DNA from: a virus
IMG/VR virus record: IMGVR_UViG_3300043811_000021
Location: 1 to 64,000 of that record
Direction: 5' to 3' (one strand)
DNA length: 64,000 nt
Below, piece after piece: positions 49,702-64,000 of the stretch (its first letter is position 1; each line of letters starts with the position of its first letter). Both the position numbers and the translations under genes were made by a program. Below the pieces are notes generated by a model. The model did not search any database. It saw nothing but the letters and a program-made list of their open reading frames with translations, and had not been told where the DNA came from.

Positions 49702-49706
49702 TAAAC

Positions 49707-49781: not shown

Positions 49782-49787
49782 TTAAAA

Positions 49788-49861: not shown

Positions 49862-49927
49862 ATTGAACATCCCAGAGTCACAGGTATTTCATCTGTGCGT
49901 TGTAACCTGCTTCCCCTACTTTCAATC

Positions 49928-50362: not shown

Positions 50363-50536
50363 TTATCTATTATAACACTAAAAGAAGCACTCCGAACTTG
50401 GTTGCTCAGGTTAACGCTTTTCCTGGCTGTTAGGCATTACGACCATTTGCAACTGGTAGCCTAAACACTCTCAACTCGCCTACCTGTATTTTCCTGTGGC
50501 CTACAGGTGTTTCGGTAGGTCTGTATCGAGCTAACT

Positions 50537-50614
50537 TGGTGCGCCGTGAGAGGCTCGAACTCCCGACCTAGTGCTTGTAAGGCACCCGCTCTGAACCAAC
50601 TGAGCTAACAGCGC
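50537..50614 (-). tRNA. tRNA-Val(TAC)
   Basis: Canonical cloverleaf, CCA. Confidence 0.92.
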
Positions 50615-50619
50615 AAAAA

Positions 50620-50695
50620 TGGACGGTCTATCGGAAGTTGAATCCGAATTTCTACCTTCGGAGGGTAGCGCCCTTATCCGTTGGACCATAGACCG
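50620..50695 (-). tRNA. tRNA-Arg(CCG)
   Basis: CTACC-CTCCGAA-GGTAG, CCA. Confidence 0.88.
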
Positions 50696-50701
50696 AAAAT
50701 A

Positions 50702-50780
50702 TGGTGCCGCTGGCCAGAATCGAACTGGCGTCAATCCGTCTACTCGAAGCCCGCTTAGGAGGCGGGTGAGGTACAGCGGC
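50702..50780 (-). tRNA. Non-canonical D-armless tRNA-like gene, anticodon CCT (Arg)
   Basis: Perfect acceptor, anticodon and T arms plus CCA; only 7 nt between acceptor and anticodon stems; 20 nt variable region. Confidence 0.7.
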
Positions 50781-50784
50781 AAGA

Positions 50785-50861
50785 TGGTGCTGACGGCTGG
50801 GATCGAACCAGCGGCATCTTGCTTAGAAGGCAAGCACTCTATCCGTCTGAGTTACGTCAGC
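50785..50861 (-). tRNA. tRNA-Arg(TCT)
   Basis: Canonical cloverleaf, CCA. Confidence 0.92.
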
Positions 50862-50865
50862 AATC

Positions 50866-50951
50866 TGGTGGAGCCGGTGGGACTTGAACCCACATTGGGT
50901 TTCCCCGCTCATTAAAAGTGAGGTCTCTGCATCCAATTCGAGTACGACTCC
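50866..50951 (-). tRNA. tRNA-Lys(TTT) with long variable arm
   Basis: CT-TTT-AA loop; variable hairpin GGG-GAAA-CCC; CCA. Confidence 0.8.
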
Positions 50952-50959
50952 ATTAAACT

Positions 50960-51036
50960 TGGTGAGCGCGGCTGGATTTGAACCAGCGTCAGCCTGCTTA
51001 AGAGGCAGGTATAATCAGCCGCTATACGACGCGCTC
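50960..51036 (-). tRNA. tRNA-Lys(CTT)
   Basis: CCTGC-CTCTTAA-GCAGG, CCA. Confidence 0.9.
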
Positions 51037-51037
51037 A

Positions 51038-51117
51038 TGGTAGACGTGACGGGTGTCGAACCCGCGTACTCCCGCTTATAAGGCAGGTGCTAAAACCAAT
51101 CCATCAGCTACACGTCT
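51038..51117 (-). tRNA. tRNA-Ile(TAT)
   Basis: CCTGC-CTTATAA-GCGGG, enlarged D-loop, CCA. Confidence 0.85.
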
Positions 51118-51126
51118 GTAAAACTA

Positions 51127-51202
51127 TGGTGCCAGTGGCTCAACTCGAATGAGCTACCTCCGACTTATGAGATCGGCGCATATCCACTTCTGCTTCACTG
51201 GC
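51127..51202 (-). tRNA. tRNA with CAT anticodon (elongator Met or Ile2)
   Basis: CCGAT-CTCATAA-GTCGG, G1:C72, CCA. Confidence 0.85.
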
Positions 51203-51207
51203 GAAAC

Positions 51208-51278
51208 TGGCAGGGGATAGGAGAATCGAACTCCTCACGGCGAGTTTTGGAGACTCGCCTAATCCCAGATCATCCCCT
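51208..51278 (-). tRNA. tRNA-Trp(CCA) with reduced D-arm
   Basis: CT-CCA-AA loop, G73, CCA; 71 nt. Confidence 0.82.
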
Positions 51279-51304
51279 GTATATCCTGCGAATTTTCAAT
51301 GATC

Positions 51305-51333
51305 AAAAAGAAGCCCTTCCACTGAGGAAGGGC
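51305..51333 (-). terminator. Attenuator terminator of tRNA block A
   Basis: GCCCTTCC-TCAGT-GGAAGGGC-TTCTTTTT. Confidence 0.85.
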
Positions 51334-51359
51334 CGGTGCTACAACACTTGCACAGACCC

Positions 51360-51431
51360 CTAAGACACGATCCCCCATCCCATCCGCTTGATGGTTATGG
51401 TTCTGACGTGTTTGCTAGTGGTCTGCATCAT
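51360..51431 (-). CDS. Leader peptide A (MMQTTSKHVRTITIKRMGWGIVS)
   Basis: AAAGGA RBS; codons match anticodons of the 12 downstream tRNAs; stop codon overlaps the antiterminator arm. Confidence 0.85.
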   Translation of the reverse strand: MMQTTSKHVRTITIKRMGWGIVS

Positions 51432-51526
51432 TTTTCCTTTGTCGAGGGGTTTCCCGCTCTAGCCCTATTATATCCCAGGCTGGGGTTTAGCTCTGCATAA
51501 TCCATCTACAGAGTACCGCAAGTCGA

Positions 51527-51856
51527 TTAGGAATGCAAGCCCAAAAATCGATAAGTCAACAATAAAGTTGTCAGATGGATCGCCTGATCGAACCCAATCA
51601 GCACAAAGAACCAGTGACGCTTCTCTTTCTTCCACAAATACGAAGTCCCCCTAGAGGTAATGTAATCGGTCGCGAAATGGAAGACAAACGTAATTATAGC
51701 GAACTTCCAGCCGAAAGCCAAGAATGGAAGAGAGTAAACAGAGACGTGAATTCCAAGCCATGTGTTTCTCGTTGACTTATTGAGAGCCATATTATCAGTT
51801 TGCAGAACAAAATCTGAGATGAAGTGAATCCAGATCAACGCTAAGATGTAGAGCAT
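51527..51856 (-). CDS. DUF3307 family membrane protein
   Basis: HF..DF.LQ...MA..K, H...Y, HF.TD, DQ..H. Confidence 0.85.
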
Positions 51857-52548
51857 GATTTCTCCTAGTGGTCACGAAATATACTGCAATCAGAATAATC
51901 CGTCCCCTCTATCTTGCCTTTCTCAAATTGATTTCTTCCGTACTTTCTACAAAAGTGAGCCAGCTCTATCCACTCTTTATCTTCAAGTGAAGTAGAAGGA
52001 AGAGAGATTTTGATATTTTTTAATAATTCCTTAAATTTTTCGTCTTCTTTTTCGAGAAGTTCTCTTTTATGCTGGCCAATCTGGTCGTACATGGTAACAT
52101 TTCCAATCCAATTCTGTGCCTCCTCTGCACTGAATCCAAAAGATTCAACACAAGTTCTTTCTGCCTCTCTTTTCCATTCGTACATAATAATCCTCAATCG
52201 TTTATCGTCTTCCGTTTTTCCAGTCTTTTAACCAATGAATCAACAACAGACTCTAGGCTGTGTCGATCTCCAAAGTGACCTACTCCATCTACTACATCAG
52301 AACATATCTCTATTACCTCTTGTAGTCGCAGGCTTTCCAAATCTTTTCCTAATCGATCCCCTTTCATTATTATCTCTAGTCTTTCAAGAACGGAAGTTAA
52401 AACTTCCTGTCCTTTTATTACGGCTGTTAGAAAGTCATCTGCGAACACCATGTTCTCAATAAGAATAGTTCCATCGGAAAACCATTCTGCATTGTTCTTA
52501 ATCTTTATTCTGTAGCATCTCATCGTTGTCTCCTATGCATATTATAGC

Positions 52549-52583
52549 AAAAAAATAGGGGAGAACAATATTCCGCTCTCCCC
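52549..52583 (-). terminator. Intrinsic terminator of the TROVE/VWA operon
   Basis: GGGGAGAGC...GTTCTCCCC followed by TATTTTTTT. Confidence 0.7.
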
Positions 52584-52603
52584 GCTCACAAAATGGTTAA
52601 AGG

Positions 52604-52906
52604 TTAAACCGCCAGTGCTTCCAAAGCAGCCAGTTCCTTTTCCAGTTCGCTCTTCTTCTGGGCAGGAGTCTTGAGAGAGTCAATCCGTGCTGTCAGTTCA
52701 CGCTTACGTGCAGCGATCTTGTCAGAGTTACGAGATGTGATCTCCCGGCGAATTGCTTTCAGTTGCGAATCAATGAACTCAGGCTCTTCGATCTGTAATG
52801 CCTCGTATTCGGCACGGAGAGACTTTCCGAAGGCCAGTCCAGCAACCAACTCGTCAATGTCAGTTACGCGGTCAGTGTTGAATGTCTTGAATGTTTGAAG
52901 ATTCAT
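52604..52906 (-). CDS. Small coiled-coil protein coupled to the TROVE/VWA gene
   Basis: ATGA overlap with upstream stop; helical heptad pattern. Confidence 0.75.
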   Translation of the reverse strand: MNLQTFKTFNTDRVTDIDELVAGLAFGKSLRAEYEALQIEEPEFIDSQLKAIRREITSRNSDKIAARKRELTARIDSLKTPAQKKSELEKELAALEALAV

Positions 52907-54411
52907 GCTGTTACCAGTTTACCTTTCTGTGCCCCCTTGAGCACTGAGTTGAGAGTTAAAAGCGGAGTGGCCAGGATTTCATCCACAAGTCCGTAGGTTT
53001 TCGTTCTCATAGTCTGCGCCAAATTTGGGATTGAGTAGTAATCCGTTCCGCCCCTTATGTCAAATGTCTGCATTTCCAGTCCAGCACTCTGCATCTTCGT
53101 TGTGAGGCTGTTAGGCTCACCTTCAACGTGGTACAGATATACTGGAACGTCACGGTCAGCGAACGCCACATATTTCTTGTAAACGTCCGTAAAGTACGGT
53201 GCGCTATGTTCCGCGCCGTCAGAAACAATTGCAATTCCATCAACCGAAATCTTCTCCTGAAGCATCCTGTTCAAACCGCAGCCGATGGATGTTCCACCGT
53301 TGGCTGTGATGTGCCTTGTTGCCTTTTGGATTGAGTCCAGAGGCAATCCTGTTACATCAATAGTCATCGGGTTAGTGTCAAAGAATACAAGGTAGACCTT
53401 TCCTCTGCAAATCTTAGCCAACGTAGCAGCAACGTGACGGGATGCCTCAATGGAACGAGACATACTACCCGACTTGTCTGCCAAAACGAGCCAATCGCCT
53501 TCTGGTCCTCCCATTGCCGCAATCTGCTTATCTTGTAGTCCCTGCAACTTCTCTTTCAGAACAGAGTCAGTCACAGACTCAGCAGCTTTGGTCGTCTTCA
53601 GCGTATTCTTCTTAGACGTTGCAGCCTTTGCTAATGCCTGATCAAATGCCCCGCGAAGTGCAGGATTCGTCTTCAGTCCCAACTTCTCCAACATCTTCAC
53701 GTTGGTAGTCAACTCAGTCGCAGACATTGCTCCAATCAACGCCAGAACCAAATCAGGTTCCTTCGCCTTTGCTCCCAATGCTCCCATCGCGATAAGGAAA
53801 GGAATCCGGTAACGCATGATCGATCCTGCCGCTTCCGTAGGAGTCATGTTCTTGAGGTTTGCTACTACCTCAAATACCGATCCCTTGGGAAGTGGTAATT
53901 TATTACCCTTTTCATCCTTACCGAAAAGAACCGCACGAACACGGTCTGCCTTTGTCTCAGGGCGAACATGGCCAAGAGCATACAACTCCCTCAGCGTCTT
54001 CCTATGCTGAATTGCCAGATGATCCCAGCCCTTATCCTGCTCCTTCTCATGCAGGTAATCGCCAATCAACCGGCGCAAAGGAAGCATCTTACCTGCTGGA
54101 CGAATCTCACGCGCAAAATGGAAAGCGCGAAGCAACTCACGCGGTCCAAGCAATGCTAAATGAGCATACGCATTATCCAATAACTCCGAGTCATTCTCAT
54201 ATGCCAAGCCGATAACTGGAAGAGCAACCTTGCTGTCCCTTATCTGCCCATGAGTTCTATCCCAGGAAATCAAATGCGCAAAGAATTCGCCTTCCTGTTT
54301 TACTGCCTGTTGTCCGATAGGAACGTATTCCTTCAGCGCACCGTGAGGACTTTTTGAAAGTTCACTCACAATTCTTTGTTTTGTCAATCCCTGTTCTGCC
54401 ATAGTATTCAT
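52903..54411 (-). CDS. Ro60/TROVE-like protein with C-terminal VWA (MIDAS) domain
   Basis: DKSGSMS (DxSxS), GGTSIG, IVSDG; basic helical N-terminal ~300 aa. VWA is certain; Ro60/TROVE is inferred from size, architecture and adjacent RNAs. Confidence 0.7.
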   Translation of the reverse strand: MNTMAEQGLTKQRIVSELSKSPHGALKEYVPIGQQAVKQEGEFFAHLISWDRTHGQIRDSKVALPVIGLAYENDSELLDNAYAHLALLGPRELLRAFHFAREIRPAGKMLPLRRLIGDYLHEKEQDKGWDHLAIQHRKTLRELYALGHVRPETKADRVRAVLFGKDEKGNKLPLPKGSVFEVVANLKNMTPTEAAGSIMRYRIPFLIAMGALGAKAKEPDLVLALIGAMSATELTTNVKMLEKLGLKTNPALRGAFDQALAKAATSKKNTLKTTKAAESVTDSVLKEKLQGLQDKQIAAMGGPEGDWLVLADKSGSMSRSIEASRHVAATLAKICRGKVYLVFFDTNPMTIDVTGLPLDSIQKATRHITANGGTSIGCGLNRMLQEKISVDGIAIVSDGAEHSAPYFTDVYKKYVAFADRDVPVYLYHVEGEPNSLTTKMQSAGLEMQTFDIRGGTDYYSIPNLAQTMRTKTYGLVDEILATPLLTLNSVLKGAQKGKLVTA

Positions 54412-54426
54412 CCTCCCGGAGATGTG

Positions 54427-54963
54427 TTATGGAAGTTTACGTTTTGCAAGGTAGTCAACAAAGAAGTTATAATCTAACTTCCGCTCCTTACACCAGTCAT
54501 GCGGGTCCATCGAACCTTTCCTCTTATTGCAATTTTTACAGGCAGAAAGGAAATTTGATGTGTCATTCGCCCCACCCGTTTCAAGTGGCTGGAAGTGATC
54601 GATTGACAGTGGAGATACACCCATTTTCACGCCGCAGTACATGCATTTGCATCCGTCAGCGACCCATACTTTCTGCTGCACCGCTCCAGAAATTTCATAG
54701 CGTACCTTGCGATGAAACGCTTTCGCTGGCATCACTAAAATCTCAGGATTATCTGTACGAGCTAAAAAGTCCGTCCACTCTTCGAGAGAAAGACGTTCAG
54801 TAGAGCATTCGCTAATATCTGGGCAATCTGGCAGCATGAGGATAGCCATTGCACCTTCTCCCCCCACTACCAACCCCTCAATTTTAAGGATATTACCCAA
54901 GTCGCCATAAACCGCTGGACGGTGGCGAAGCTCAAGCATATAAAAACGATCTCCGCTAGCCAT
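54427..54963 (-). CDS. HNH nuclease with N-terminal extension
   Basis: CMYCG...IDH..P...GG.N...N...AC..CN.RKG. Confidence 0.85.
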   Translation of the reverse strand: MASGDRFYMLELRHRPAVYGDLGNILKIEGLVVGGEGAMAILMLPDCPDISECSTERLSLEEWTDFLARTDNPEILVMPAKAFHRKVRYEISGAVQQKVWVADGCKCMYCGVKMGVSPLSIDHFQPLETGGANDTSNFLSACKNCNKRKGSMDPHDWCKERKLDYNFFVDYLAKRKLP

Positions 54964-54992
54964 ATTATCCTCTCCCAAGGCACAAAAAATAC

Positions 54993-55158
54993 TGGCTTCG
55001 TGTCGAGTGTGGTTTTGATGTTTTCAAGCAGCCTTGCGGCCCTCGAAACCCCCGCCTCATCATCCCTGCCTCTCGGCAGAATCCCTGACTCAGACGATCA
55101 GGCGGGGGGTTGCAGGTTGCCCTGCAAAACTATCATGTATCCACTCTCAGTGAAGCCA
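54993..55158 (-). ncRNA. Array RNA 1 (Y-RNA-like), multibranched insert
   Basis: TGGCTTC-ACT-GAGAGTGG-ATACAT ... CCACACTC-GACAC-GAAGCCA. Confidence 0.75.
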
Positions 55159-55178
55159 ATCTTGTACTACTTAACTTA

Positions 55179-55295
55179 TGGAGCCGGGTCCAAGAATTGA
55201 ACTTGGATTGTCGATTTATGGAATCGATGCATGTATCCAGAGTTAGTAAGGTTGCCCTTGTGTCAACTTTGGCATTACCGTTTTGCTAACCCGGC
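55179..55295 (-). ncRNA. Array RNA 2: tRNA(CAT)-like body with motif hairpin inserted after the D-arm
   Basis: GCCGGGT/ACCCGGC-T-CCA; TCGAT-TCCATAA-ATCGA; insert CCAAAGTT-GACAC-AAGG-GCAA-CCTT-ACT-AACTCTGG-ATACAT. Confidence 0.75.
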
Positions 55296-55308
55296 TCAAC
55301 TTGTACGG

Positions 55309-55773
55309 TCAACTATTCCTACCGCGAATCTTACGGCAATCAATACAGTAGTCCCTTAATCCGGTTTCCTTATTGCCGTCCTTGTGAAATCTTCCTTTTG
55401 GTATCCAATCCTGATGACGACTACACCAAGCCATTCCGTCAGGAGCTATTCCTATAGTTCGTATGGAATTGTACGTTGCCTTACCTAAATGACCGGCGGC
55501 AATGTTGCATCTTTTATGGGAAAATGCTATGTTCTCCAAATCCCAAAAGAGGTCGGCGCTTATTCCTTCCCAAGGTTTCTTGTGTTCTATAGAACACTCA
55601 GAAGATTTTTCAATCTTCTTCTTACAGCGATAACAAGTATCTGCTCCGCATCTTTTTACAAGATCAAACAAGATAAGTCTATAAAGTCTGCCATTCGCAG
55701 TACCAAAAGGCATATTTAGCGTCTCATCTTTTTTCCATGTAGAACTCTTCTTTTTTATTTCCATCATCTCCAT
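55309..55773 (-). CDS. HNH endonuclease-like protein inserted in the RNA array
   Basis: CYRC, SIEH.KPW, N...SH..CN, C-terminal zinc finger; start moved downstream of array RNA 3. Confidence 0.75.
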   Translation of the reverse strand: MEMMEIKKKSSTWKKDETLNMPFGTANGRLYRLILFDLVKRCGADTCYRCKKKIEKSSECSIEHKKPWEGISADLFWDLENIAFSHKRCNIAAGHLGKATYNSIRTIGIAPDGMAWCSRHQDWIPKGRFHKDGNKETGLRDYCIDCRKIRGRNS

Positions 55774-55781
55774 ATAATACA

Positions 55782-55880
55782 TGGAGGGAATAAATTTCAA
55801 CCCAATGCTGCTCTTTATCCATGTACCCAGGCAAAGTAACGTTTCCGTTGTGTCTTGTCCGGTTCCGTTTTTTGCCCCCC
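55782..55880 (-). ncRNA. Array RNA 3: degenerate tRNA-like body with motif hairpin
   Basis: CCGG-ACAA-GACAC-AACG-GAAA-CGTT-ACT-TTGCCTGG-GTACAT; G-rich 5' end pairs with TTCCCT-CCA. Confidence 0.65.
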
Positions 55881-55887
55881 ACAACTT

Positions 55888-56017
55888 ATTTGGTTAGTGT
55901 CTGTCAGCGAGTGTTGCTGGTTGAAAAAGTAGGGATCGAACCTACGACCTATTCATTTGAAGTGAATTGCTCTACCAGTGAGCTATTTTTCCGTGTACGC
56001 TGCCATGTTAACCAAAT
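55888..56017 (-). ncRNA. Array RNA 4: motif stem enclosing a complete tRNA(TCA)
   Basis: ATTTGGTTA-ACA-TGGCAGCG-TACAC-[tRNA]-...CGCTGACA-GACAC-TAACCAAAT. Confidence 0.75.
55918..55992 (-). tRNA. tRNA with TCA anticodon (would read UGA), nested in array RNA 4
   Basis: GCTC/GAGC D-arm, ATTCA-CTTCAAA-TGAAT, GTAGG-TTCGATC-CCTAC, A-U-rich acceptor with G1-A72 mismatch, ACCA. Confidence 0.75.
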
Positions 56018-56022
56018 CTTAA

Positions 56023-56084
56023 AGGGTTGGTATCGGACTGCGCTGTTCATGTTTACAAAGCATGTAAGCAGTCCCGTCAACCCT
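56023..56084 (-). ncRNA. Array RNA 5 (minimal unit)
   Basis: AGGGTTG-ACG-GGACTGC-TTACAT ... GCAGTCC-GATAC-CAACCCT. Confidence 0.75.
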
Positions 56085-56091
56085 ATCTTAA

Positions 56092-56207
56092 TCCGCTTGT
56101 GTCTTTTGGCTAACCCTTGCGGGCACAAGGCCGTTTTCGAGGCGGCTTCTTTTTCTCCAAATGAAAATGCTGGACTACCAGCACATGTACGCCAAAACGT
56201 AAGCGGA
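56092..56207 (-). ncRNA. Array RNA 6
   Basis: TCCGCTT-ACG-TTTTGGC-GTACAT ... GCCAAAA-GACAC-AAGCGGA. Confidence 0.75.
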
Positions 56208-56380
56208 ATCTTTCATCCCTAACATCAGGAAAACTCAAACTCAGTGATTAGGTAGCCTCACATCAGGTCGCTCACTTCCAGAATCCGGCACAGTTACAAA
56301 CGGGACGACACCCTCACCTAGCTACCATCTTTCCATGCCCTCATTGGTAAAGCTACCTAATCTCTGCATCAACAAAACCA

Positions 56381-56409
56381 ACTCTACTACAATGTCCTGC
56401 GCATTGCAA
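56381..56409 (-). promoter_or_regulatory. Putative promoter of the RNA array / TROVE operon
   Basis: TTGCAA-17 bp-TAGAGT with GCGCAGGACAT box in the spacer, same geometry as 34197-34225. Confidence 0.55.
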
Positions 56410-56455
56410 GCACTTTCTAAAACTATTTTCTACTATTTTTATGCTTGCTAAATTA

Positions 56456-56534
56456 TGGTGGGGCTGGCAGGACTTGAACCTGCTGCCTCCGGTTTCGTAG
56501 ACCGGCGCTCTGAATCCAGATGAGCTACAACCCC
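56456..56534 (-). tRNA. tRNA-Arg(ACG)
   Basis: CCGGT-CTACGAA-ACCGG, CCA. Confidence 0.92.
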
Positions 56535-56546
56535 ACTTACAAAAAA

Positions 56547-56621
56547 TGGTCGGGGAGGGGAATCCTGACATCCCAACCTTTCCGCCCCAAACGGAAAGCT
56601 CTTCCTTTGAGCTACTCCCCG
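56547..56621 (-). tRNA. tRNA-Pro(TGG)
   Basis: C1:G72, TT-TGG-GG loop, CCA; atypical T-loop. Confidence 0.82.
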
Positions 56622-56843
56622 ATAAACTTGGTTACTTCTCGTCCAATAAAACATAGTACTGATCAGGACCATGCTCTGCTGCTGAATTCAGAACATCCAC
56701 CAATTCATCCGCAGTAATGGCATAGTATTTTCTATTTCCATTCACCGGAAAAAACGGGAATAGCGCAGCCATTCGTCTTTCTGATTCAAGATACAGCTTT
56801 TCTGTTTGTACGAAAACCTGTGACATATTACCTCCGATAACAC

Positions 56844-57143
56844 TCACAAATCTCTAACAACAAACTTCCACGGATCGCTCATTACCCAGCCAACAGCTTT
56901 TCCGTTCTCTAACTCATACCAACGATCAACTGGAGATTCAGGTCCAGGCCACGGCTTAGGCCAAGTAGGTCCATCCTCGCCAAAATTAGTATGCGTCCTT
57001 AGCACAGGAATTTTAAGTAAAGAATCTACTTCGTCATTCCTGCCCATTCCATTTTCCGTGTACCCGCATGGCAGAGCGTCAGATAAACTATCAGACCCAT
57101 CATATCCAAAAATCTTTATGAGTAGTTCTTCTTCCTCTGTCAT
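56844..57143 (-). CDS. Hypothetical protein
   Basis: GGAG RBS; W.ELENGKAVGW. Confidence 0.55.
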   Translation of the reverse strand: MTEEEELLIKIFGYDGSDSLSDALPCGYTENGMGRNDEVDSLLKIPVLRTHTNFGEDGPTWPKPWPGPESPVDRWYELENGKAVGWVMSDPWKFVVRDL

Positions 57144-57156
57144 TGCTTCTCCGATA

Positions 57157-57234
57157 TGGTGGACTCGGCCAGATTTGAACTGGCAACACGATGATTTTCA
57201 GTCACCTGCTCTACGCGATTGGAGCTACGAGTCC
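57157..57234 (-). tRNA. tRNA-Phe(GAA)
   Basis: GGTGA-CTGAAAA-TCATC, CCA. Confidence 0.9.
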
Positions 57235-57861
57235 GATTAACGATCTCCAGTCGTTTCTTTCTTTAGATGTCTTCCGACGATGACAATTTGCACATCGCAC
57301 AACACATTTTTCAATCTCTTCCAAAATCCTTTTCATCGAGCATGTTGAGCGTAGGAGCTTAGATATATTGCACTTTTTAACCCCTTTAATATGGTCAAAA
57401 TCCAAGACCATAATGTCCGATTCTCCGCAATCCACACAATGATGTTCCGCCAGATAAGAAACGATGAAAGCCCTTTGTTCCTGTCGTTTAATATCCCTGT
57501 TACGATAAAGGCGCTTCCGTTCTCTTTCCGAGTTATCCCTATAGTGCTGTGCCTTATAAGAACTTTCGCAAATCATGCACCATGCTTGTAGCCCATCTCT
57601 CCGTGCAGCATTTTCTCTAAAATCGCAGCGTGTTTTAACCGTGGTGCATTTGCTGCAATATTTCTCCTTTTCAGGATCGAACTTTGGAAGAAGACTTCTA
57701 CCGTCTTCCGCGATGCACTTCTTGGAGCAAAACCTACGTTTAGCATATTGAGTTTTCCAAAACTCTTTGCCACACCAAGCACATGAATAAGCAAATAGAC
57801 GCCTATTCTTGCCATGAAAAAATTCGATCCTACAATCAACCATGCAATAAGTGTAATACAA
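57211..57861 (-). CDS. HNH homing-endonuclease-like protein
   Basis: Zinc fingers, CVDCG...LDFDH, EI.KC.V.CANCHR. Confidence 0.8.
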   Translation of the reverse strand: MYYTYCMVDCRIEFFHGKNRRLFAYSCAWCGKEFWKTQYAKRRFCSKKCIAEDGRSLLPKFDPEKEKYCSKCTTVKTRCDFRENAARRDGLQAWCMICESSYKAQHYRDNSERERKRLYRNRDIKRQEQRAFIVSYLAEHHCVDCGESDIMVLDFDHIKGVKKCNISKLLRSTCSMKRILEEIEKCVVRCANCHRRKTSKERNDWRSLIGLVAPIA

Positions 57862-57884
57862 ATGACTGAAAACATCAAAACTTT

Positions 57885-57960
57885 TGGTGGACCGGGAGGG
57901 GCTTGAGTCCTCGCGCAGACGCTTGCAGGGCGTCCCATCTCCATCTGAAAGTACCGGCCC
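57885..57960 (-). tRNA. tRNA-Ala(TGC)
   Basis: G3:U70, CC-TGC-AA loop (C33), CCA; atypical D and T loops. Confidence 0.8.
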
Positions 57961-58005
57961 ATTTATTCAACTTCAAACTGTGCCGGGGAATTTCACCCCG
58001 GCGAT

Positions 58006-58093
58006 TGGGGAGATCGGCGGAACTCGAATCCGCGTTGAGGAATTACCCTCCCGGAGCCACAATCCGGTGCCTATCCATCTCGGCCACGACCTC
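58006..58093 (-). tRNA. tRNA-His(GTG) with long variable arm
   Basis: TT-GTG-GC loop, C73, variable hairpin GAGG-GTAATT-CCTC; no encoded G-1. Confidence 0.82.
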
Positions 58094-58096
58094 ACT

Positions 58097-58170
58097 TGGA
58101 GCACTCAGTAGGAATCAAACCCACGTTTTGGCCATACAAAGGGCACGTTCTGTCACTGAACTATGAGTGC
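58097..58170 (-). tRNA. tRNA-Thr(TGT)
   Basis: GCACTCA/TGAGTGC, TT-TGT-AT loop, CCA. Confidence 0.82.
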
Positions 58171-58174
58171 AAAC

Positions 58175-58720
58175 TTACACAAACTGCAAACTCTTCTCAC
58201 CTTCGGAATCAGAGTACAAATACTTACTCCACGCTTCGACTTCCAATCCCATCGAACGAAGGATAATCCTTCCTGTGTGAACCGTGGCTGGGAGAGGCTT
58301 GCGAAGTAGTTTCATTCCAGCCTCTTCCGGCGTACGATCTGCCTTGCGGTGGTTATCTTTGCGGCAGCAAGTTACAAGGTTACTCCAGTCGTTCTTTCCT
58401 CCACGCGACTTAGGAATTACGTGGTCAAGTGTCAAAGAATCACCCTTGAATTCCTCTCCACAATAGCAGCACTTATGCCCATCGCGCAAGTAAATATTTT
58501 TCCTACTCACAACCTGCATCCGAACGGGAATATGTCTATACGTTCTCAACTTGATTACCGATGGTAAAGTTATGCCAGGATAAACTTCAATATCCGTTGG
58601 CATCTCTACCATAGCAGCACCCTTACAAAGTAACGTCAAAGCTCTACGGGCAGCAACTATTCTGATCGGCTCATACGATGCGTTTAATACCAACACCGGC
58701 TTTTTCATCAGGTTGCTCAT
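58175..58720 (-). CDS. HNH endonuclease
   Basis: VLVLNASYEP, PSVI.L, RD...CCYCG, TLDHVIP.SRGG...W.NLV. Confidence 0.9.
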   Translation of the reverse strand: MSNLMKKPVLVLNASYEPIRIVAARRALTLLCKGAAMVEMPTDIEVYPGITLPSVIKLRTYRHIPVRMQVVSRKNIYLRDGHKCCYCGEEFKGDSLTLDHVIPKSRGGKNDWSNLVTCCRKDNHRKADRTPEEAGMKLLRKPLPATVHTGRIILRSMGLEVEAWSKYLYSDSEGEKSLQFV

Positions 58721-58764
58721 ATTCCCTCAATCAATCTCCGCTAGTCTCTCTGAATAATCTTCTG

Positions 58765-58840
58765 TGGAGCCGGTGGAGGCAATCGAAGCCCCGACCTCAT
58801 CTGTACGAAAGATGCGCTCTTCCACCTGAGCTACACCGGC
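58765..58840 (-). tRNA. tRNA-Thr(CGT)
   Basis: CATCT-TTCGTAC-AGATG, CCA. Confidence 0.9.
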
Positions 58841-58935
58841 TTGTCTACGTCTTGCCACTACTATACTATGCACTTTCGTGAAGTCGTGGCTCACTAACAT
58901 CATTCTGTGGGTCATCGGCTTTCCTTTCTTTCAAT

Positions 58936-59010
58936 TGGAGCGGAGTACGGGGTATGATCCCGTGCGCAAAGTGTGGCACACTTCGATGCTTCCAATTACA
59001 TCAACTCCGC
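58936..59010 (-). tRNA. tRNA-Gly(GCC)
   Basis: GCG 5' end, GT-GCC-AC loop, U73, CCA; T-loop ATCATAC. Confidence 0.82.
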
Positions 59011-59018
59011 AAATCTTT

Positions 59019-59093
59019 TGGTTCCAGCGCGAGGTTACGATCCCCGATCCTCGCCTTCAAAGGGCGGTATCCTACCAGTTAGATGACGCTGGA
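59019..59093 (-). tRNA. tRNA-Gln(TTG)
   Basis: U1:A72, CT-TTG-AA loop, CCA; T-loop ATCGTAA. Confidence 0.85.
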
Positions 59094-59102
59094 TCAAAAC
59101 CT

Positions 59103-59177
59103 TGGTTGCCCATCGAGGCGACGATCCCCGAACTACTGGTCCAGAGCCAGCCGTGATACCAATTTCACCAATGGGCA
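59103..59177 (-). tRNA. tRNA-Gln(CTG)
   Basis: U1:A72, CT-CTG-GA loop, CCA; T-loop ATCGTCG. Confidence 0.85.
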
Positions 59178-59293
59178 ACAACTAAACAGTGAGGGCGCGA
59201 CTCTTTCGCTCCGAACGTCTTACTCAAACCCCAAAGGGGTCACTGCGTTACTCGACAGGACTTACTAGACGGCCTGTGTCCCTCTCCAAACTT

Positions 59294-59384
59294 TGGCTCA
59301 CGGAGCAGGACTCGAACCTGCGATGGGAGATGAACTCCTCTGTATTAACAGTACAGCGCCTGCTACCAACTCGGCTATCCGTGA
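59294..59384 (-). tRNA. tRNA-Asn(GTT) with long variable arm
   Basis: U1:A72, G73, CT-GTT-AA loop, variable hairpin GGAG-TTCAT-CTCC. Confidence 0.85.
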
Positions 59385-59401
59385 ACATCCCTAAACAGTT
59401 C

Positions 59402-59429
59402 GAGACCCAAACCTTTCGATCTGGGCCTC
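59402..59429 (-). terminator. Attenuator hairpin of tRNA block B (weak U-tract)
   Basis: GAGGCCCAGATC-GAAA-GGTTTGGGTCTC then GAACTGTTT. Confidence 0.6.
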
Positions 59430-59476
59430 TGCGTTTTACCATTTTTAGTTAGGTAAAAATCTCTCTGAGACCCCGA

Positions 59477-59542
59477 TTATGACCCCCCACCCTGCGGCGT
59501 TTGTGTCGCGGTTGGATTGGCGTTATGGAATCGTGTCTGCAT
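59477..59542 (-). CDS. Leader peptide B (MQTRFHNANPTATQTPQGGGS), probably leaderless
   Basis: ATG 6 nt after the -10 box; codons match the 11 downstream tRNAs. Confidence 0.85.
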   Translation of the reverse strand: MQTRFHNANPTATQTPQGGGS

Positions 59543-59548
59543 GAATTC

Positions 59549-59577
59549 AATGTACCTCAGTCCTAAAAACTTGTCAA
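59549..59577 (-). promoter_or_regulatory. Promoter of tRNA block B
   Basis: TTGACA-17 bp-TACATT. Confidence 0.8.
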
Positions 59578-59585
59578 GAACTTTT

Positions 59586-59861
59586 TTAAGGTAATCCCGC
59601 CAACTGCGTTTCTTGCCTCTGGGCCGGTGGCCAGTTGTCTATTTTTCGCATTAGAGTCCGTATCGCTGCTTCCCGCTTCACGTCCACAATTCCTCTCCCC
59701 TGATCTTTCAGAGAATCAATCAATAAAGAAACCAGCTTTGCCTTTGCCTCAGCTAACGGATACTCTCGTTTAGAAACGTGAATCACTACTTCATGCTTTT
59801 GTGTGTCCTGCGCGAAACAGGTAATCGAGAAAAGAAGAATTGCGATAAGGAATGGTTTCAT
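59586..59861 (-). CDS. Hypothetical secreted protein
   Basis: N-terminal signal peptide. Confidence 0.5.
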   Translation of the reverse strand: MKPFLIAILLFSITCFAQDTQKHEVVIHVSKREYPLAEAKAKLVSLLIDSLKDQGRGIVDVKREAAIRTLMRKIDNWPPAQRQETQLAGLP

Positions 59862-60025
59862 GCGTCATCATGGCATAGTTCATATAAAGACAATATAAGA
59901 AAAGAGAAGGGACATGCTCTTCAGCTTGCCCCTTCGAGCCTCAGCCTACGCAGCTGAGGGAATACGATTTTGGTTAAATCAATTGTAACGCAGTTCCGCA
60001 ATCTGTGCAGAATTTATTTGCAGCC

Positions 60026-60481
60026 TTATTCACTTTTCCGCAAGTCACACACTCCGGTTTCCTGTCCACCGTTCCCGCCGCCCAGCTTGCTCCAATTGCA
60101 ATCCTTGAGGGCTAGGCGAATACGATGCAGCATGAACCATGCCGTCTTCTGTGTGACCTCAATCGCCCGCATGATCTCGTAGGAACTAACGCCGTTCTTG
60201 CAATTCACTACCAGCCAAACGGCGGTCAGCCATTTATCGAGCGGCACAGGAGAATCCTCGAACACACTCTGAGTCTTCACACTGAATTGCTTGTGGCACT
60301 CTTTCGCCATGCACTTCCATATCCGGCGAGAGGACAGATAGGAAACTCTCTTGCTCTCACAGTGCGGGCAGGTGACACCGTTAGGCCAGCGCATCGACGC
60401 AACGAAATCGACACACACGTTCGGGTCTTGGAAATACCGCGTTGCGGCAAGTAAGCTCTTGGGTAGTCTTTCTTTACTCAT
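60026..60481 (-). pseudogene. Truncated IS1595-family transposase
   Basis: RWPNG..CPHC zinc ribbon, FSVK...FEDS..PL.KW, KTAWFMLHRIR; the catalytic domain is missing. Confidence 0.8.
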
Positions 60482-60726
60482 TCTTCACCTCACAGAATCA
60501 AAGAAAACGTTGCGGCTGTCTCCGTAGAGGTGTATTATTTCTACAGAGAGAAGCCCTTATGACTCCCCGCGCAACCATGCGCAGGGAGCCTGAAAGGCCA
60601 TAGACTCCGGTGTTAGAGCACCATTGCCTGTGGGTACTACCGTGTGAAAGTACATTTTGCTTCTCCTCGGTCCTTAAATTAGCTTGCTAGGCTGTGGACC
60701 GAATCCGTTGTACCGAAGCCCCGGCC

Positions 60727-61158
60727 TTAAGCTGGGGTTTCGTTTTTATCCTCCCTTTTATTGGCAATGTAGCGATGCGGATCACGGCCCCGGCCTTGGT
60801 GCGTCCGCGTGATCCGTCCAGCCTGCATGAGAGCGATGAGCGACCACCCTACTGCGTTCATAGCGGCATCAGGTTTTTCTGGGAGACGAACCAGTGCACC
60901 GAGTTGAATTGCCGAAAGGACACTCCGCGAGGTCCACTCGGTTTCCGGCGAAGAATTCACCAATTGCAGAACGACAGACTCCATTTCACTCAGTTCGCCC
61001 CGGACAGTTTTTGCTTGGACAGTGACTAGATTTCCATCTTTGCCAACAAAGACAAAATCGTATCCGGGATAACGCTGCTTGAGGCGTGTCAGATCATCGC
61101 TATCCCTGCGGATTTCCCGCTCAGCGGCTTCGATTGGATTTATGGGAGCTGCGTTCAT
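60727..61158 (-). CDS. Hypothetical protein, possible IS passenger
   Basis: AAGGA RBS; winged-helix-like C-terminus. Confidence 0.5.
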   Translation of the reverse strand: MNAAPINPIEAAEREIRRDSDDLTRLKQRYPGYDFVFVGKDGNLVTVQAKTVRGELSEMESVVLQLVNSSPETEWTSRSVLSAIQLGALVRLPEKPDAAMNAVGWSLIALMQAGRITRTHQGRGRDPHRYIANKREDKNETPA

Positions 61159-61346
61159 TCCTTAATCGTAAACATGGATTCATGGAATGTCAAGCCTTAC
61201 GGTGGAAAGTTTTCATGGAAATCATGGATTATCCTGCGCTTTCCTACGCAACGGCATAGTCCTAAATCACGCCGCTACGAGGGTTGTATCCGCTCGGCTG
61301 TAAACCGAAGTCAACAGATTTTATTTGTATGGTGCGTCAACGATAT

Positions 61347-62009
61347 TTATGCCGATTTAACCTCTTTCAGATGAGCAACCTCTATGTATCGCGAATATCT
61401 ACATACCGCACAGAATTTCGGTCGTCCGCTTTTATCATATATCGTTTCAGCATCTCTACGAATAGATGAACGCGCTGACTGCCAATTAGACCGCCTCGCG
61501 AATAGTTCATCCTTCGTTAATTGTCCGATACTGATTGGTCGCTTCACTCTCTCTGCGCACGATGGGCAGTATTTATGAGATTTATAATCTTCCGTCCTGT
61601 AAAATACGTCCCCACATATTTTGCAGTGGCATCCAGTTCTTAGTTTTTTGCCGACAAATACAGAAGAGCACTTTCGGTCACAGAAGTTTCTTTTATTTAT
61701 CTGAGAGATTTTCTCCCTCGGCTTGAGAATTAGAATCCTTCCACACTCCTTGCATATTTTTGGGTTAGAGTAATAGAGATCAATTGCTTCTTGTCTAGCT
61801 AAAATATTTCCATTTGGTATGTAGTTTGGGTGCTCTTTTTTATATCTCTCTTTATCTCTTTCAGTCAGATATTCCCTGTGATCTTCTCGATACTTCTTCT
61901 GGTATGCGCGGCGGCATTCCATGCATCTTTCTGTCGATATTGGGATTTCATGAAGGCGCTTTTGGCAAAACTTCGTTAATCCTGAAAACATTTCTTGACC
62001 ATGCTTCAT
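61347..62009 (-). pseudogene. C-terminally truncated HNH-like protein
   Basis: Several zinc fingers, then CAVC.Y...IEVAH and a stop before the HNH motif is complete. Confidence 0.6.
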
Positions 62010-62145
62010 ATTCTCTCCTCAGATTGGCGTGGCAGTAGCCTACGCTGATTAAATTCAGTGTTTTCATACCTATTCCTCTTTTTTTTGGTTTTCCTGCTGC
62101 TTAACGTGTTGCAGGAGCCACGGAATAATTTAGTGTAGCACGGAA

Positions 62146-62490
62146 CTACGGAAACCGAGCAATACCAGGAACTTGATCGAATCCAGTCACTCCTTCTCGC
62201 TTCAAAAGCCTCCAACCTCCATCACCTATCCGCATCACTTCTCCACTGTCTATTTCCTCAATCGGATTCGTAACCTTTCTCCAATTCTCGCAAGTGCATT
62301 TGAATTGCATTGAAACAGGAAGAGGACATGGCTCTCCTAGATGCGATTCTTCATTATCACCACAACATCTACGCATATTACATGGAGGGATACATCCACC
62401 AACTAAAACAGCGCCCTGTTTGACAAGACGCTGCGCTTCGGCTCCAGAACGGGCCATTCCAGTTTCCGTTAGTGCCTTAGATAATTTCAT
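62146..62490 (-). CDS. Stand-alone S4 RNA-binding domain protein with Cys-rich insert
   Basis: L.ETG.A.S..EA.RLV.QGAV.V.G motif resembling the TyrRS C-terminal S4 domain; later RKV...E.......RIG. Confidence 0.7.
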   Translation of the reverse strand: MKLSKALTETGMARSGAEAQRLVKQGAVLVGGCIPPCNMRRCCGDNEESHLGEPCPLPVSMQFKCTCENWRKVTNPIEEIDSGEVMRIGDGGWRLLKREGVTGFDQVPGIARFP

Positions 62491-62507
62491 TTCCTCTCCC
62501 TAAAGTA

Positions 62508-62594
62508 TGGTGCAGGCGGTGTGAATCGAACACACTATGCCCCGGAGGACGCTTGATTTACAGTCAAGGAGGCTACCATTAGCCCAACGCCTGC
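62508..62594 (-). tRNA. tRNA-Tyr(GTA)
   Basis: CTTGA-CTGTAAA-TCAAG, long variable arm, CCA. Confidence 0.9.
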
Positions 62595-62600
62595 ACATCA

Positions 62601-62687
62601 TGGAGGAGAGGACGCGAGTCGAACGCGCAGTACCTTTCAGTACGTCTGATTTCAAATCAGGTCGGCTTGCCCATGCCGAACCTCTCC
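62601..62687 (-). tRNA. tRNA-Ser(TGA)
   Basis: TT-TGA-AA loop, long variable arm, CCA. Confidence 0.88.
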
Positions 62688-62692
62688 AAATT

Positions 62693-62780
62693 TGGCGGTA
62701 GCAGGATGAGTTGAACATCCAATAGCTTTCACTATGTCTCGCTTCGAACGAGGTGGGCTTGCCACATGCCCAATGCTACC
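62693..62780 (-). tRNA. tRNA-Ser(CGA)
   Basis: TT-CGA-AG loop, long variable arm, G73, CCA. Confidence 0.88.
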
Positions 62781-62784
62781 AAAA

Positions 62785-62870
62785 TGGCGGAAAGTTAGGT
62801 ACTCGAAACCTACACCTCGCGGTGCTCACCGATTTCCAATCGGGTCCCATCCCTGACGGGTTAACTTTCC
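62785..62870 (-). tRNA. tRNA-Ser(GGA)
   Basis: TT-GGA-AA loop, long variable arm, G73, CCA. Confidence 0.88.
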
Positions 62871-62874
62871 AAAC

Positions 62875-62960
62875 TGGCGGAGCGTACTGAAGTCGAATCA
62901 GTTCAGGCTTTCACCTGTACGGTTTAGCAAACCGCTGCATTTCCGTCCTGCCCACGCTCC
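62875..62960 (-). tRNA. tRNA-Ser(GCT)
   Basis: TT-GCT-AA loop, long variable arm, G73, CCA. Confidence 0.88.
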
Positions 62961-62961
62961 G

Positions 62962-63039
62962 TGGTCCTCGCACCCGGACTCGAACCGGGAATATGACACG
63001 CTTTTTGAGAGCGCCGCTCTTCCATTTCGCCATGCGAGG
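62962..63039 (-). tRNA. tRNA-Leu(CAA), short variable region
   Basis: GCGCT-CTCAAAA-AGCGT, A73, CCA. Confidence 0.85.
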
Positions 63040-63052
63040 TACTTCTAAACTA

Positions 63053-63135
63053 TGGTGCCCGCAGAGGGACTCGAACCCCCACCCCGAAAGACCTGTTCCT
63101 AAGACAGGCGCGGCTGCCAATTACGCCATGCGGGC
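63053..63135 (-). tRNA. tRNA-Leu(TAG)
   Basis: CCTGT-CTTAGGA-ACAGG, CCA. Confidence 0.9.
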
Positions 63136-63147
63136 ACATCTTAAACT

Positions 63148-63222
63148 TGGAGTACCGGGAGAGAGTCGAACTCTCCAAAACTTGCTTTGCAGGCAAGACC
63201 TTAGCCGATTAGGTTCCGGTAC
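63148..63222 (-). tRNA. tRNA-Cys(GCA)
   Basis: CTTGC-CTGCAAA-GCAAG, U73, CCA. Confidence 0.9.
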
Positions 63223-63223
63223 A

Positions 63224-63306
63224 TGGTGCGGGATAAGGGACTCGAACCCTTACGATTTCTCCACGGATTTTAAGTCCGTTATGGCTCCCAGTTTCATCAA
63301 TCCCGC
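63224..63306 (-). tRNA. tRNA-Leu(TAA)
   Basis: ACGGA-CTTAAAA-TCCGT, CCA. Confidence 0.9.
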
Positions 63307-63337
63307 AAAACTAAAAAGCCCCCATTTCTGGAGGCTT
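63307..63337 (-). terminator. Attenuator terminator of tRNA block C
   Basis: AAGCCTCCA-GAAA-TGGGGGCTT-TTTAGTTTT. Confidence 0.85.
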
Positions 63338-63362
63338 CTGGTAAAAATCCTGAACTTGGACT

Positions 63363-63434
63363 CTATCCCATAGCCTCTCTCGCACTCAGACTGAGTGAAT
63401 ACGATGATAAAGATAGGGAGCACAAGTTGTTCAT
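63363..63434 (-). CDS. Leader peptide C (MNNLCSLSLSSYSLSLSAREAMG)
   Basis: 14 consecutive Leu/Cys/Ser/Tyr codons matching the 9 downstream tRNAs. Confidence 0.88.
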   Translation of the reverse strand: MNNLCSLSLSSYSLSLSAREAMG

Positions 63435-63440
63435 GTATTG

Positions 63441-63469
63441 ATCCTCTCATAGATTCAGGATGTTGTCAA
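63441..63469 (-). promoter_or_regulatory. Promoter of tRNA block C
   Basis: TTGACA-17 bp-(TGn)GAGGAT, ATG 6 nt downstream as in block B; GAGG could instead act as an RBS. Confidence 0.6.
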
Positions 63470-63695
63470 GACTTCTTTTTTGTTATTTTCGTTATCCGCA
63501 CATTCTTTAGTTTTGAACGGACAATTCTCGCCAGACGTGCGATCTCCTTGAGTTTTTCTCCCTTCCATATTTCTTCGTCCGCCAAAAGAACTCTTCCGTG
63601 CTTATCTGTAGATAATTTTAATATCGCAGATGTGATGTCAGGTATTGAGTCTTTCTTTGTGTACTTCTTCTTCAGGATTATCGCCATATATCTCC

Positions 63696-63989
63696 TCAAT
63701 CCGGGTACTTAACTTTGTCTGGATTTTCCTTTTGCCAGTCCGAAAATTGCGCAGCAAAATGAGCCACTTCATCTGCCTGTTCATCTAAACTCGATGCAAG
63801 ATTTATGGCCTCTTCCTCAGTCAGGTTCTTGTCGCGTTCTACCCATTCTGACAATTGCTGCAATAGAACAGCGTATTGTCTCACAGCCTGTACTGAAAGG
63901 CGATCCTGAGCGCGAATGAAAAAGTACGGCTCCCCTTTATGTAGCCTTAGTAGTGGGTTTTCGTTTGCATATTTACCTGTCTTTGGCAT
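63696..63989 (-). CDS. Conserved phage hypothetical protein
   Basis: EP.F..RAQD......V..YA motif; AGGAG RBS. Confidence 0.6.
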   Translation of the reverse strand: MPKTGKYANENPLLRLHKGEPYFFIRAQDRLSVQAVRQYAVLLQQLSEWVERDKNLTEEEAINLASSLDEQADEVAHFAAQFSDWQKENPDKVKYPD

Positions 63990-64000
63990 TTACTCTCCTG

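Follow-up and report, generated by a model that had tools for sequence, protein, structure and literature searches.

A codon-matched leader ORF upstream of a phage tRNA gene block probably acts as a ribosome-mediated transcription attenuator

The DNA analyzed here (the window) comprises the first 64 kb of IMG/VR record IMGVR_UViG_3300043811_000021, a single phage-like contig of 134,145 bp. Its tRNA genes form three blocks (A, B, and C), with small genes between them, many of which encode HNH or PD-(D/E)XK endonucleases. The tRNA genes of phages are commonly viewed as cargo whose co-expression is passive. Immediately upstream of the middle block, block B (59384-56456, minus strand, 11 tRNAs), lies leader B, a short open reading frame (ORF) that is followed by a set of competing RNA pairings. 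We consider it probable that leader B is a ribosome-mediated transcription attenuator that senses the decoding of the codons served by its own tRNA cargo. The kind of control, leader-peptide attenuation, is a known one; the gene class to which it would be applied, tRNA genes, is unexpected. The core of this reading, a leaderless leader ORF sampling codons of all 11 downstream tRNAs, had been put forward in a preliminary description of this DNA, whose statements about the sequence were all confirmed on the minus strand; our computations support that reading, and the arrangement is conserved in all eight distinct homologous loci with enough upstream DNA.

Leader-peptide attenuators are marked by a short ORF that separates the promoter from the genes under control and is rich in the codons to be sensed. 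Leader B lies between a promoter (59577-59549) and tRNA-Asn (59384), and its ORF is strongly enriched in block B codons. After the initiator Met, 19 of its 20 residues belong to the nine-amino-acid set of block B. Under strict wobble, 15 of the 20 codons are read by block B tRNAs, and all 11 tRNAs find a codon. The preliminary description had counted 19 block B residues out of 21 and a decodable codon for all 11 tRNAs, both of which were reproduced; its division into seven tRNAs matched exactly and the rest by wobble also held when the codons were read against the anticodons, with four matched by G:U, U:G, or I:A. Such a match is rare on this contig. Among 122,944 stop-free stretches of 20 codons in its six frames, 11 cover all 11 tRNAs, and 4 of those are leader B; when at least 18 of 20 in-set residues are demanded along with full coverage, only the 4 stretches of leader B are left. 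Dinucleotide shuffles of the leader B body reached both observed values in 5 of 50,000 cases, so base composition is not the explanation of the codon match.

The match is also specific to the block. Codon-matched mini-ORFs, leaders A and C, precede the two other tRNA blocks (Table 1): the leader MMQTTSKHVRTITIKRMGWGIVS precedes a Trp/Met/Ile/Lys/Arg/Val block, and the leader MNNLCSLSLSSYSLSLSAREAMG precedes a Leu/Cys/Ser/Tyr block. Each of the three leaders matches its own block and not the other two. Scored against blocks A and C, leader B has 8 and 1 in-set residues and covers 2 and 1 tRNAs, respectively, and the matches of leaders A and C to their own blocks were reached by 1 and 3 of 50,000 dinucleotide shuffles. 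Homologues of leaders A and C were found in the related loci L002, L006, and L009. Locus L002 holds all three blocks, and there the leader-by-block matrix is diagonal, with 9/9, 11/11, and 8/8 of the ARAGORN-found tRNAs covered.

Related loci were collected with the neighboring TROVE (Ro60-like) protein, which is independent of the leader, as the anchor (9 viral and 37 metagenome loci); 5 more were found by a DNA pattern, giving 51 altogether. tRNA-Asn(gtt) is present in 18 of the 51, and the upstream regions comprise nine distinct sequences after duplicates (L007-L009, L011-L014, L017, and L042) were counted once. L036 was left out because its contig ends 73 nt upstream of tRNA-Asn, leaving eight usable homologues, or nine leaders including that of the window. 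Beyond these loci, a DNA search of a phage collection returned as its only match a 71-nt tRNA-Asn stretch in a Pseudomonas phage, and a protein search with the TROVE protein returned one uncultured 595-kb phage at 30% identity.

The architecture of the leader is kept throughout. All eight homologues and the window have TTGACA, a 17- to 18-nt spacer, TAnnnT, and a start codon 5 to 10 nt after the −10 element, followed by a stop codon beside a G-rich segment, a small middle hairpin, and a strong hairpin. The homologous ORFs span 23 to 27 codons (21 to 27 with the window included) and start with ATG, or with GTG in L006 and L004. In frame 0, the block B set accounts for 186 of 209 residues when the nine leaders are taken together, and frames +1 and +2 score lower in every homologue. 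From codon 3 to the sixth-last codon the figure rises to 142 of 146. Out-of-set residues concentrate at codon 2 (5/9) and in the last six codons (14/54), where a stalled ribosome would already cover segment 2, the RNA segment next to the stop codon that is described below. Each of the nine amino acids is present in 8/9 leaders, His and Phe usually once or twice, and tRNA coverage is 10 to 12 of 10 to 12 in every homologue. Amino acid composition is kept across the leaders and residue order is not; between L002 and L031, His and Asn codons are exchanged between two positions. It is hardly credible, then, that the product of the ORF is a small peptide that acts in its own right: the ORF is indeed conserved in all nine leaders, but what is conserved is its composition and not its sequence, and no Pfam or NCBIfam family matched leader peptide A, B, or C at E-values up to 10.

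The same data bear on whether the ORF is translated at all. It could be an untranslated part of a structured 5′ leader of the pre-tRNA, its codon match being a by-product of base composition and common descent. The +1 frame is likewise stop-free in 6/9 homologues and scores 13 to 18 in-set residues of 20 to 26, so an open frame by itself proves nothing, and this weighs against attenuation. Nevertheless, we regard an untranslated ORF as very improbable, given the rarity of the match among composition-preserving shuffles (only 5/50,000), the lower scores of the other frames in each homologue, the fact that three leaders of very different composition match their own block only, and the preservation in 9/9 leaders of both the distance from the −10 element to the start codon and the placement of the stop codon relative to segment 2.

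The likely start of the transcript was placed at the ATG in the preliminary description, from TTGACA and TACATT at a 17-nt spacing. This geometry is present on the minus strand and recurs in 9/9 homologues, and a start codon 5 to 10 nt after the −10 element fits the leaderless type at the level of the predicted start. Of 10 promoter-like sites in 55000-64000, the leader B promoter, with a score of 10 of 12, ranks in the top three. Such sites are not enriched in that interval (10 versus 11.5 ± 3.1 in shuffles), and the promoter call is therefore based on quality and conservation. No Shine-Dalgarno-like sequence precedes the leader B ATG. Judging from this arrangement, transcription probably starts at the ATG, and the ORF is probably translated. 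A search for sequencing runs that contain this DNA listed one, recorded as DNA and possibly the source sample, and no RNA run. Nine TTGACA-N16-18-TAnnnT sites occur on the contig, of which six have an ATG or GTG 6 to 7 nt past the −10 element, three of these opening ORFs of 91, 116, and 143 amino acids; leaderless expression from this type of promoter thus looks normal for the phage. Outside the window, two divergent TTGACA-N17-TAGCGT promoters at ~67819 (minus strand) and ~67844 (plus strand) of the contig, each with a start codon 6 to 7 nt after the −10 element, open ORFs of 91 and 116 amino acids that look like leaderless genes.

Downstream of the ORF, three RNA segments can form two mutually exclusive pairings. 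Segment 3 (GAGGCCCAGAUC) is the 5′ arm of a terminator-like hairpin and pairs either with the 3′ arm, segment 4 (GGUUUGGGUCUC), or with segment 2 (AUCGGGGUCUC), the upstream strand of a putative antiterminator; in the window all three pair without mismatch. The earlier observation that GGGTCTC just past the stop codon exactly repeats the end of the 3′ arm was confirmed at 59473-59467 (minus strand). Its proposed ability to capture the 5′ arm finds support in predicted folds of the nascent transcript, in which the competition appears in 9/9 leaders. The first base of segment 2 is also the final base of the stop codon, so a ribosome terminating there would cover the segment. Its core falls between −9 and +12 nt in all nine leaders, counted from the first base of the stop codon, and segment 2 as a whole lies within −21 to +12 nt of that codon. 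The leader B RNA folds better than its shuffles (z = −3.15; 0/200 as good). Between segments 2 and 3, the middle hairpin, which the antiterminator would enclose, is preceded by GAUUUUUAC, a sequence common to leader C; homologues keep the stems while their sequences differ, and the hairpin may be a pause or spacer element.

The pairings were followed by folding each nascent transcript without its 3′ arm, a modeling choice made in place of equilibrium folds. For ribosome stalls at codon 5, 10, or 15, the segment near the stop codon is predicted to sequester the 5′ arm in 9/9 leaders (7 to 17 bases paired). Placing the ribosome at the stop codon masks segment 2 in these folds and leaves the 5′ arm free (0 to 6 bases paired). 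When no ribosome is present, the 5′ arm is substantially captured in most leaders, about half captured in L031 (6/13) and in the window (7/12), and clearly less so in L004 (4/13 bases paired). The predicted default in the absence of translation is therefore read-through, unlike that of trp. MAFFT alignments put the helices out of register and were not used for counting pairs. Pairs were instead tabulated from per-sequence folds anchored on an invariant CCC and, as such, are energy predictions. Positions −4 to +2 of the 5′ arm, numbered from this anchor, pair in both structures in 8 to 9 of 9 leaders. Compensatory changes occur at positions −1, −2, and −3, where the partners in segments 2 and 4 change together with the arm (as in L005 and L039, where G/C/C becomes A/U/U). 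The terminator of L039 is unrelated in sequence and ends in a U run, and still segment 2 of this locus copies the 3′ arm and overlaps the stop codon. The folds are thus consistent with an antiterminator that would exclude the terminator and whose upstream strand would be masked by a ribosome at the stop codon, as is typical of leader-peptide attenuators.

From these elements, we propose the following mechanism. Host RNA polymerase would start at the ATG or a few bases from it, yielding a leaderless mRNA on which a ribosome would translate the 21-codon ORF, whose codons 2 to 18 hold at least one codon per downstream tRNA species. If decoding is smooth, the ribosome would reach TAA and cover segment 2 (59477-59467), segments 3 and 4 would pair just upstream of tRNA-Asn, and transcription would be stopped or reduced. 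If any sampled codon is decoded slowly, the ribosome would stall upstream and leave segment 2 free to pair with newly made segment 3 around the middle hairpin; the terminator would be blocked, and the polymerase would enter the tRNA genes. Such a leader would behave as a multi-input OR gate under negative feedback, yielding tRNAs during a shortage and ceasing to do so once the supply is restored. The physiological trigger would presumably be a shortage of host tRNAs, caused, for example, by host shut-off or tRNA-cleaving defenses, and termination at the hairpin and the direction of the switch are likewise predicted.

The main doubt concerns whether a hairpin that lacks a U-tract terminates efficiently, and by what means. 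The preliminary description had cautioned that the hairpin has no clean U-tract, and this is borne out for the window copy, in which a G+C-rich hairpin is present but the U-tract that directly follows the stem of an intrinsic terminator is absent: the tail is GAACUGUU, without a U-run, and a terminator scan does not list the hairpin. Seven of the nine leaders have only 2 to 4 U in the 8 nt after the stem. L005 (UGUUUUGG) and L039 (UUUUACU) do have U-runs after the stem, with 5 U in the tail, yet they too are unlisted by the scan, since their loops are longer than it allows; the hairpin of L002 does appear on its list as terminator-like.

The output may accordingly be something other than intrinsic termination. 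The ORF would still be translated and the pairings real, but the leader, which is C-rich and G-poor, would direct Rho-dependent termination, or the hairpin would serve pre-tRNA processing or stability; translation status would then affect the amount of tRNA through a different route and perhaps with the opposite sign. The weak tails in the window and in 7/9 leaders, the silence of the scan on the window hairpin, and an ORF body that reads as rich in C and A fit such an output. It is nonetheless unlikely, because in L005 and L039 U-runs follow the stems at the corresponding site, L002 has a scan-listed hairpin, and segment 2 mimics segment 4 in 9/9 leaders and covaries with segment 3, as a choice between terminator and antiterminator predicts. 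The hairpins downstream of leaders A and C point the same way: both carry runs of U or T, the terminator of leader C being listed by the scan and that of leader A consisting of a stem and then a T run. Alternatively, the design may work in relatives and have decayed here, the loss of the U-tract causing constitutive read-through into block B and leaving the ORF and pairings as remnants. The contrast between the window tail (GAACUGUU) and the U-runs of L039 and L005, together with the unlisted hairpin, would suit decay. This seems less probable still, as the window ORF is intact, its coverage is 11/11, and its segments 2, 3, and 4 pair perfectly; moreover, five other homologues with equally weak tails keep all other parts, from which we argue that weak tails are tolerated by the design.

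Further points weigh against the proposed attenuator. Five of the 20 leader B codons (GCC, ACC, GGG twice, and TCA) are not read by block B tRNAs under strict wobble, and coverage is incomplete in L031 (10/11), L016 (11/12), and L005 (10/11). The nine homologues are relatives, and counts over them are not independent. Their cargo is nearly invariant, so to speak of covariation between codons and cargo is to speak of differences between blocks and not inside block B; where relatives carry an extra Pro cgg or Ala cgc tRNA, or have Arg gcg or tcg in place of acg, no distinctive leader codons mirror them. Full-length equilibrium folds keep the terminator despite a stalled ribosome in 8/9 leaders, and in the window the antiterminator gains −12.9 kcal/mol as against −18.7 kcal/mol for the hairpin, so that any switch must be kinetic. 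The switch of the classical trp leader is likewise kinetic. In the full-length folds, the 5′ end of the ORF pairs with the stop-proximal region in most homologues, and a trp-type protector (1:2) pairing is not clearly present in the predictions. Finally, shuffled versions of the segment 2 region reach the observed value in 21, 0, 72, 54, 4, 1, 29, 0, and 26 of 300 trials in the nine leaders, so each sequence considered singly lends modest support.

The leaders also share short sequences. As the preliminary description noted, leaders A and B have in common a sequence at the start, ATGCAGAC, and GGGGTCT after the stop codon. The accompanying suggestion that both derive from one ancestral cassette is not supported, because their local alignment is at chance level (204/500 shuffles reach its score). 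The 10-mer GATTTTTACC occurs both in leader B (~59452-59461) and in leader C (~63340-63349), on the minus strand and at nearly equal distances from the start codons; the score of this match was reached by 10/500 shuffles. The 10-mer is kept in most leader B homologues and may be a pause signal.

Whether phages more broadly gate accessory tRNA operons with such "codon checklist" leader ORFs, on which a ribosome tests isoacceptors singly and any stall leads to tRNA transcription, is to us an evenly balanced question. Against it stands the Met-Asp-Glu-Glu block of relatives, whose upstream region has a promoter-like site and no leader ORF, so the gating of tRNA blocks is not universal. In L010 (4598-5030), L016 (~600-760), and L039 (1836-2330), an extra gene, HNH-type or a small ORF, lies between the attenuator and tRNA-Asn, and there the attenuator would gate a protein-coding gene too.

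If the proposal is correct, leader B would be the first known leader-peptide attenuator controlling non-coding RNA genes, and this form of control would extend beyond amino acid metabolism to RNA components of the translation apparatus itself. Large phages would thereby be spared the expense of tRNA overproduction and yet respond fast when host tRNAs are short or destroyed. The circuit would be self-limiting in its supply of tRNA, and it could detect host tRNA depletion, as in shut-off or by anticodon-cleaving defenses, and answer with replacement tRNAs. It would also provide a signature, in that the composition of a leader ORF predicts the cargo of its operon, by which transcription units and odd tRNAs of uncultured phages could be annotated.

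ARAGORN at default settings finds 26 tRNA genes on the contig, all of them in the window and on the minus strand. Rfam adds three tRNAs beyond this set, and Gly gcc and Ala tgc were obtained through lowered thresholds or alignment. The tRNA-Ala(tgc) gene was missed by both ARAGORN and Rfam, and its D and T arms are unusual by eye. At the syntenic Ala position of L004 (~3245-3318), an Ala-like tRNA that ARAGORN does not call has G3:U70 by eye and the anticodon TAC (Val codons). tRNA-Asn(gtt) and tRNA-His(gtg) of the window are 91 and 88 nt long, which we read as long extra arms, unusual for both identities; tRNA-Asn measures 75 to 76 nt in L002, L005, L006, and L016 and 87 to 90 nt in L004, L010, L031, and L039. 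No Asp or Glu tRNA was found on the contig of the window.

Two suppressor-type tRNAs are encoded on the minus strand, with the anticodons tta (reads TAA; 50866-50951) and tca (reads TGA; 55922-55992). The tta tRNA belongs to block A and would read TAA, the stop codon of leader B (59479-59477, minus strand), while 8/8 homologous leaders use TAG; cta tRNAs are carried by L005 and L009. Suppressor read-through of the leader stop codon could couple the tRNA blocks. Within block B, a small ORF with a Shine-Dalgarno-like sequence (58727-58915, minus strand) begins just after tRNA-Gly(gcc) and extends into tRNA-Thr(cgt). Similar peptides (e.g., M-x-H-x-M-x-L-x-S/D-A-D...) occur at the matching site in L002, L004, L005, L006, L010, and L016 and were not found at that site in L031 or L039. 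This ORF may be a second, internal regulatory ORF or may encode a small protein.

Table 1. Positions of leader B, its RNA elements, the block B tRNA genes, and related leader regions (window coordinates unless a locus is named)
Feature	Position	Strand	Details
−35 hexamer	59572-59577	−	TTGACA; identical in 9/9 distinct homologues
−10 hexamer	59549-59554	−	TACATT; 17-nt spacer; then 6 nt, A of ATG at 59542; homologues TAnnnT
Leader B ORF	59477-59542	−	21 codons + TAA, MQTRFHNANPTATQTPQGGGS; putative sensing codons 2-18
Segment 2	59467-59477	−	AUCGGGGUCUC; core GGGTCTC 59473-59467; upstream strand of predicted antiterminator
Middle hairpin	59434-59458	−	UUUUACC ... GGUAAAA; enclosed by predicted antiterminator
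Segment 3	59418-59429	−	GAGGCCCAGAUC; 5′ arm of terminator-like hairpin; pairs with segment 2 or segment 4
Segment 4	59402-59413	−	GGUUUGGGUCUC; 3′ arm; hairpin −18.7 kcal/mol
Tail after hairpin	59391-59401	−	GAACUGUUUAG; 3 U in first 8 nt, no clean U-tract
Block B cargo	56456-59384	−	11 tRNA genes and interspersed HNH-type endonuclease genes
tRNA-Asn gtt	59384-59294	−	ARAGORN default
tRNA-Gln ctg	59177-59103	−	ARAGORN default
tRNA-Gln ttg	59093-59019	−	ARAGORN default
tRNA-Gly gcc	59010-58936	−	ARAGORN at lowered threshold only
tRNA-Thr cgt	58840-58765	−	ARAGORN default
tRNA-Thr tgt	58170-58097	−	ARAGORN default
tRNA-His gtg	58093-58006	−	ARAGORN default
tRNA-Ala tgc	57960-57885	−	Colinear alignment with Ala tRNAs of four relatives
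tRNA-Phe gaa	57234-57157	−	ARAGORN default
tRNA-Pro tgg	56621-56550	−	Rfam, 40 bits
tRNA-Arg acg	56534-56456	−	ARAGORN default
Leader A	51291-51472	−	Codon-matched mini-ORF before block A
Leader C	63307-63469	−	Codon-matched mini-ORF before block C
Met-Asp-Glu-Glu block upstream regions	L006 ~1000-1231; L009 ~1200-1416; L002 ~3400-3673		

T-box riboswitches bind uncharged tRNA directly, without a ribosome, and carry a conserved T-box sequence. Leader B would share with them a leader RNA in which a choice between terminator and antiterminator responds to the state of specific tRNAs, but its sensor would be a translating ribosome. When 48000-64000 was scanned against Rfam, with E-values up to 1 admitted, no family, including T-box and leader RNAs, matched within 59391-59577.

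Closer in kind are the multivalent leader-peptide attenuators of enterobacterial amino acid operons, such as thrL (Thr, Ile) and ilvL (Ile, Val, Leu); trpL, hisL, and pheL also belong to these leaders (for pheL, as described in part of PMC3082878). Leader B resembles the thrL/ilvL type in having a short ORF, enriched in sensed codons, between the promoter and the regulated genes and in its predicted exclusive terminator and antiterminator pairings, the choice between which would be set by ribosome position. It differs in what it regulates, tRNA genes instead of biosynthetic enzymes, and in what it samples: nine amino acids and 11 isoacceptors in the manner of a checklist, most of them represented by one to four codons, in place of runs of one to three amino acids. 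It further lacks a Shine-Dalgarno sequence, probably begins directly at the transcript 5′ end, and has a weak U-tract, and with no clear protector (1:2) helix its predicted untranslated state is read-through.

Within the openly accessible main texts that it covered, our full-text literature search returned no description of tRNA genes under leader-peptide control. It turned up a single published case of a regulated accessory tRNA array, the trn operon of Anabaena sp. PCC 7120, which is long and silent and which, according to parts of PMC8421152 and PMC10272220, is induced under translational stress. The two systems would have in common that an accessory tRNA set is expressed when translation is impaired. 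Control of the Anabaena operon, as those parts describe it, is exerted at the promoter, by the repressor TrcR on direct repeats, and involves no codon-matched ORF; the terms "leader peptide" and "attenuat" have 0 occurrences in the two papers. The leaderless aspect has a counterpart in mycobacteria, in which, according to part of bioRxiv 10.1101/834739, leaderless short ORFs encoding polycysteine are cysteine-responsive attenuators. As far as that part of the report describes them, these ORFs sense one amino acid, Cys, and control cellular protein-coding genes, whereas leader B lies in a phage, samples many codons, and precedes tRNA genes; like them, it would be a leaderless short first cistron that works as a translation-dependent attenuator.

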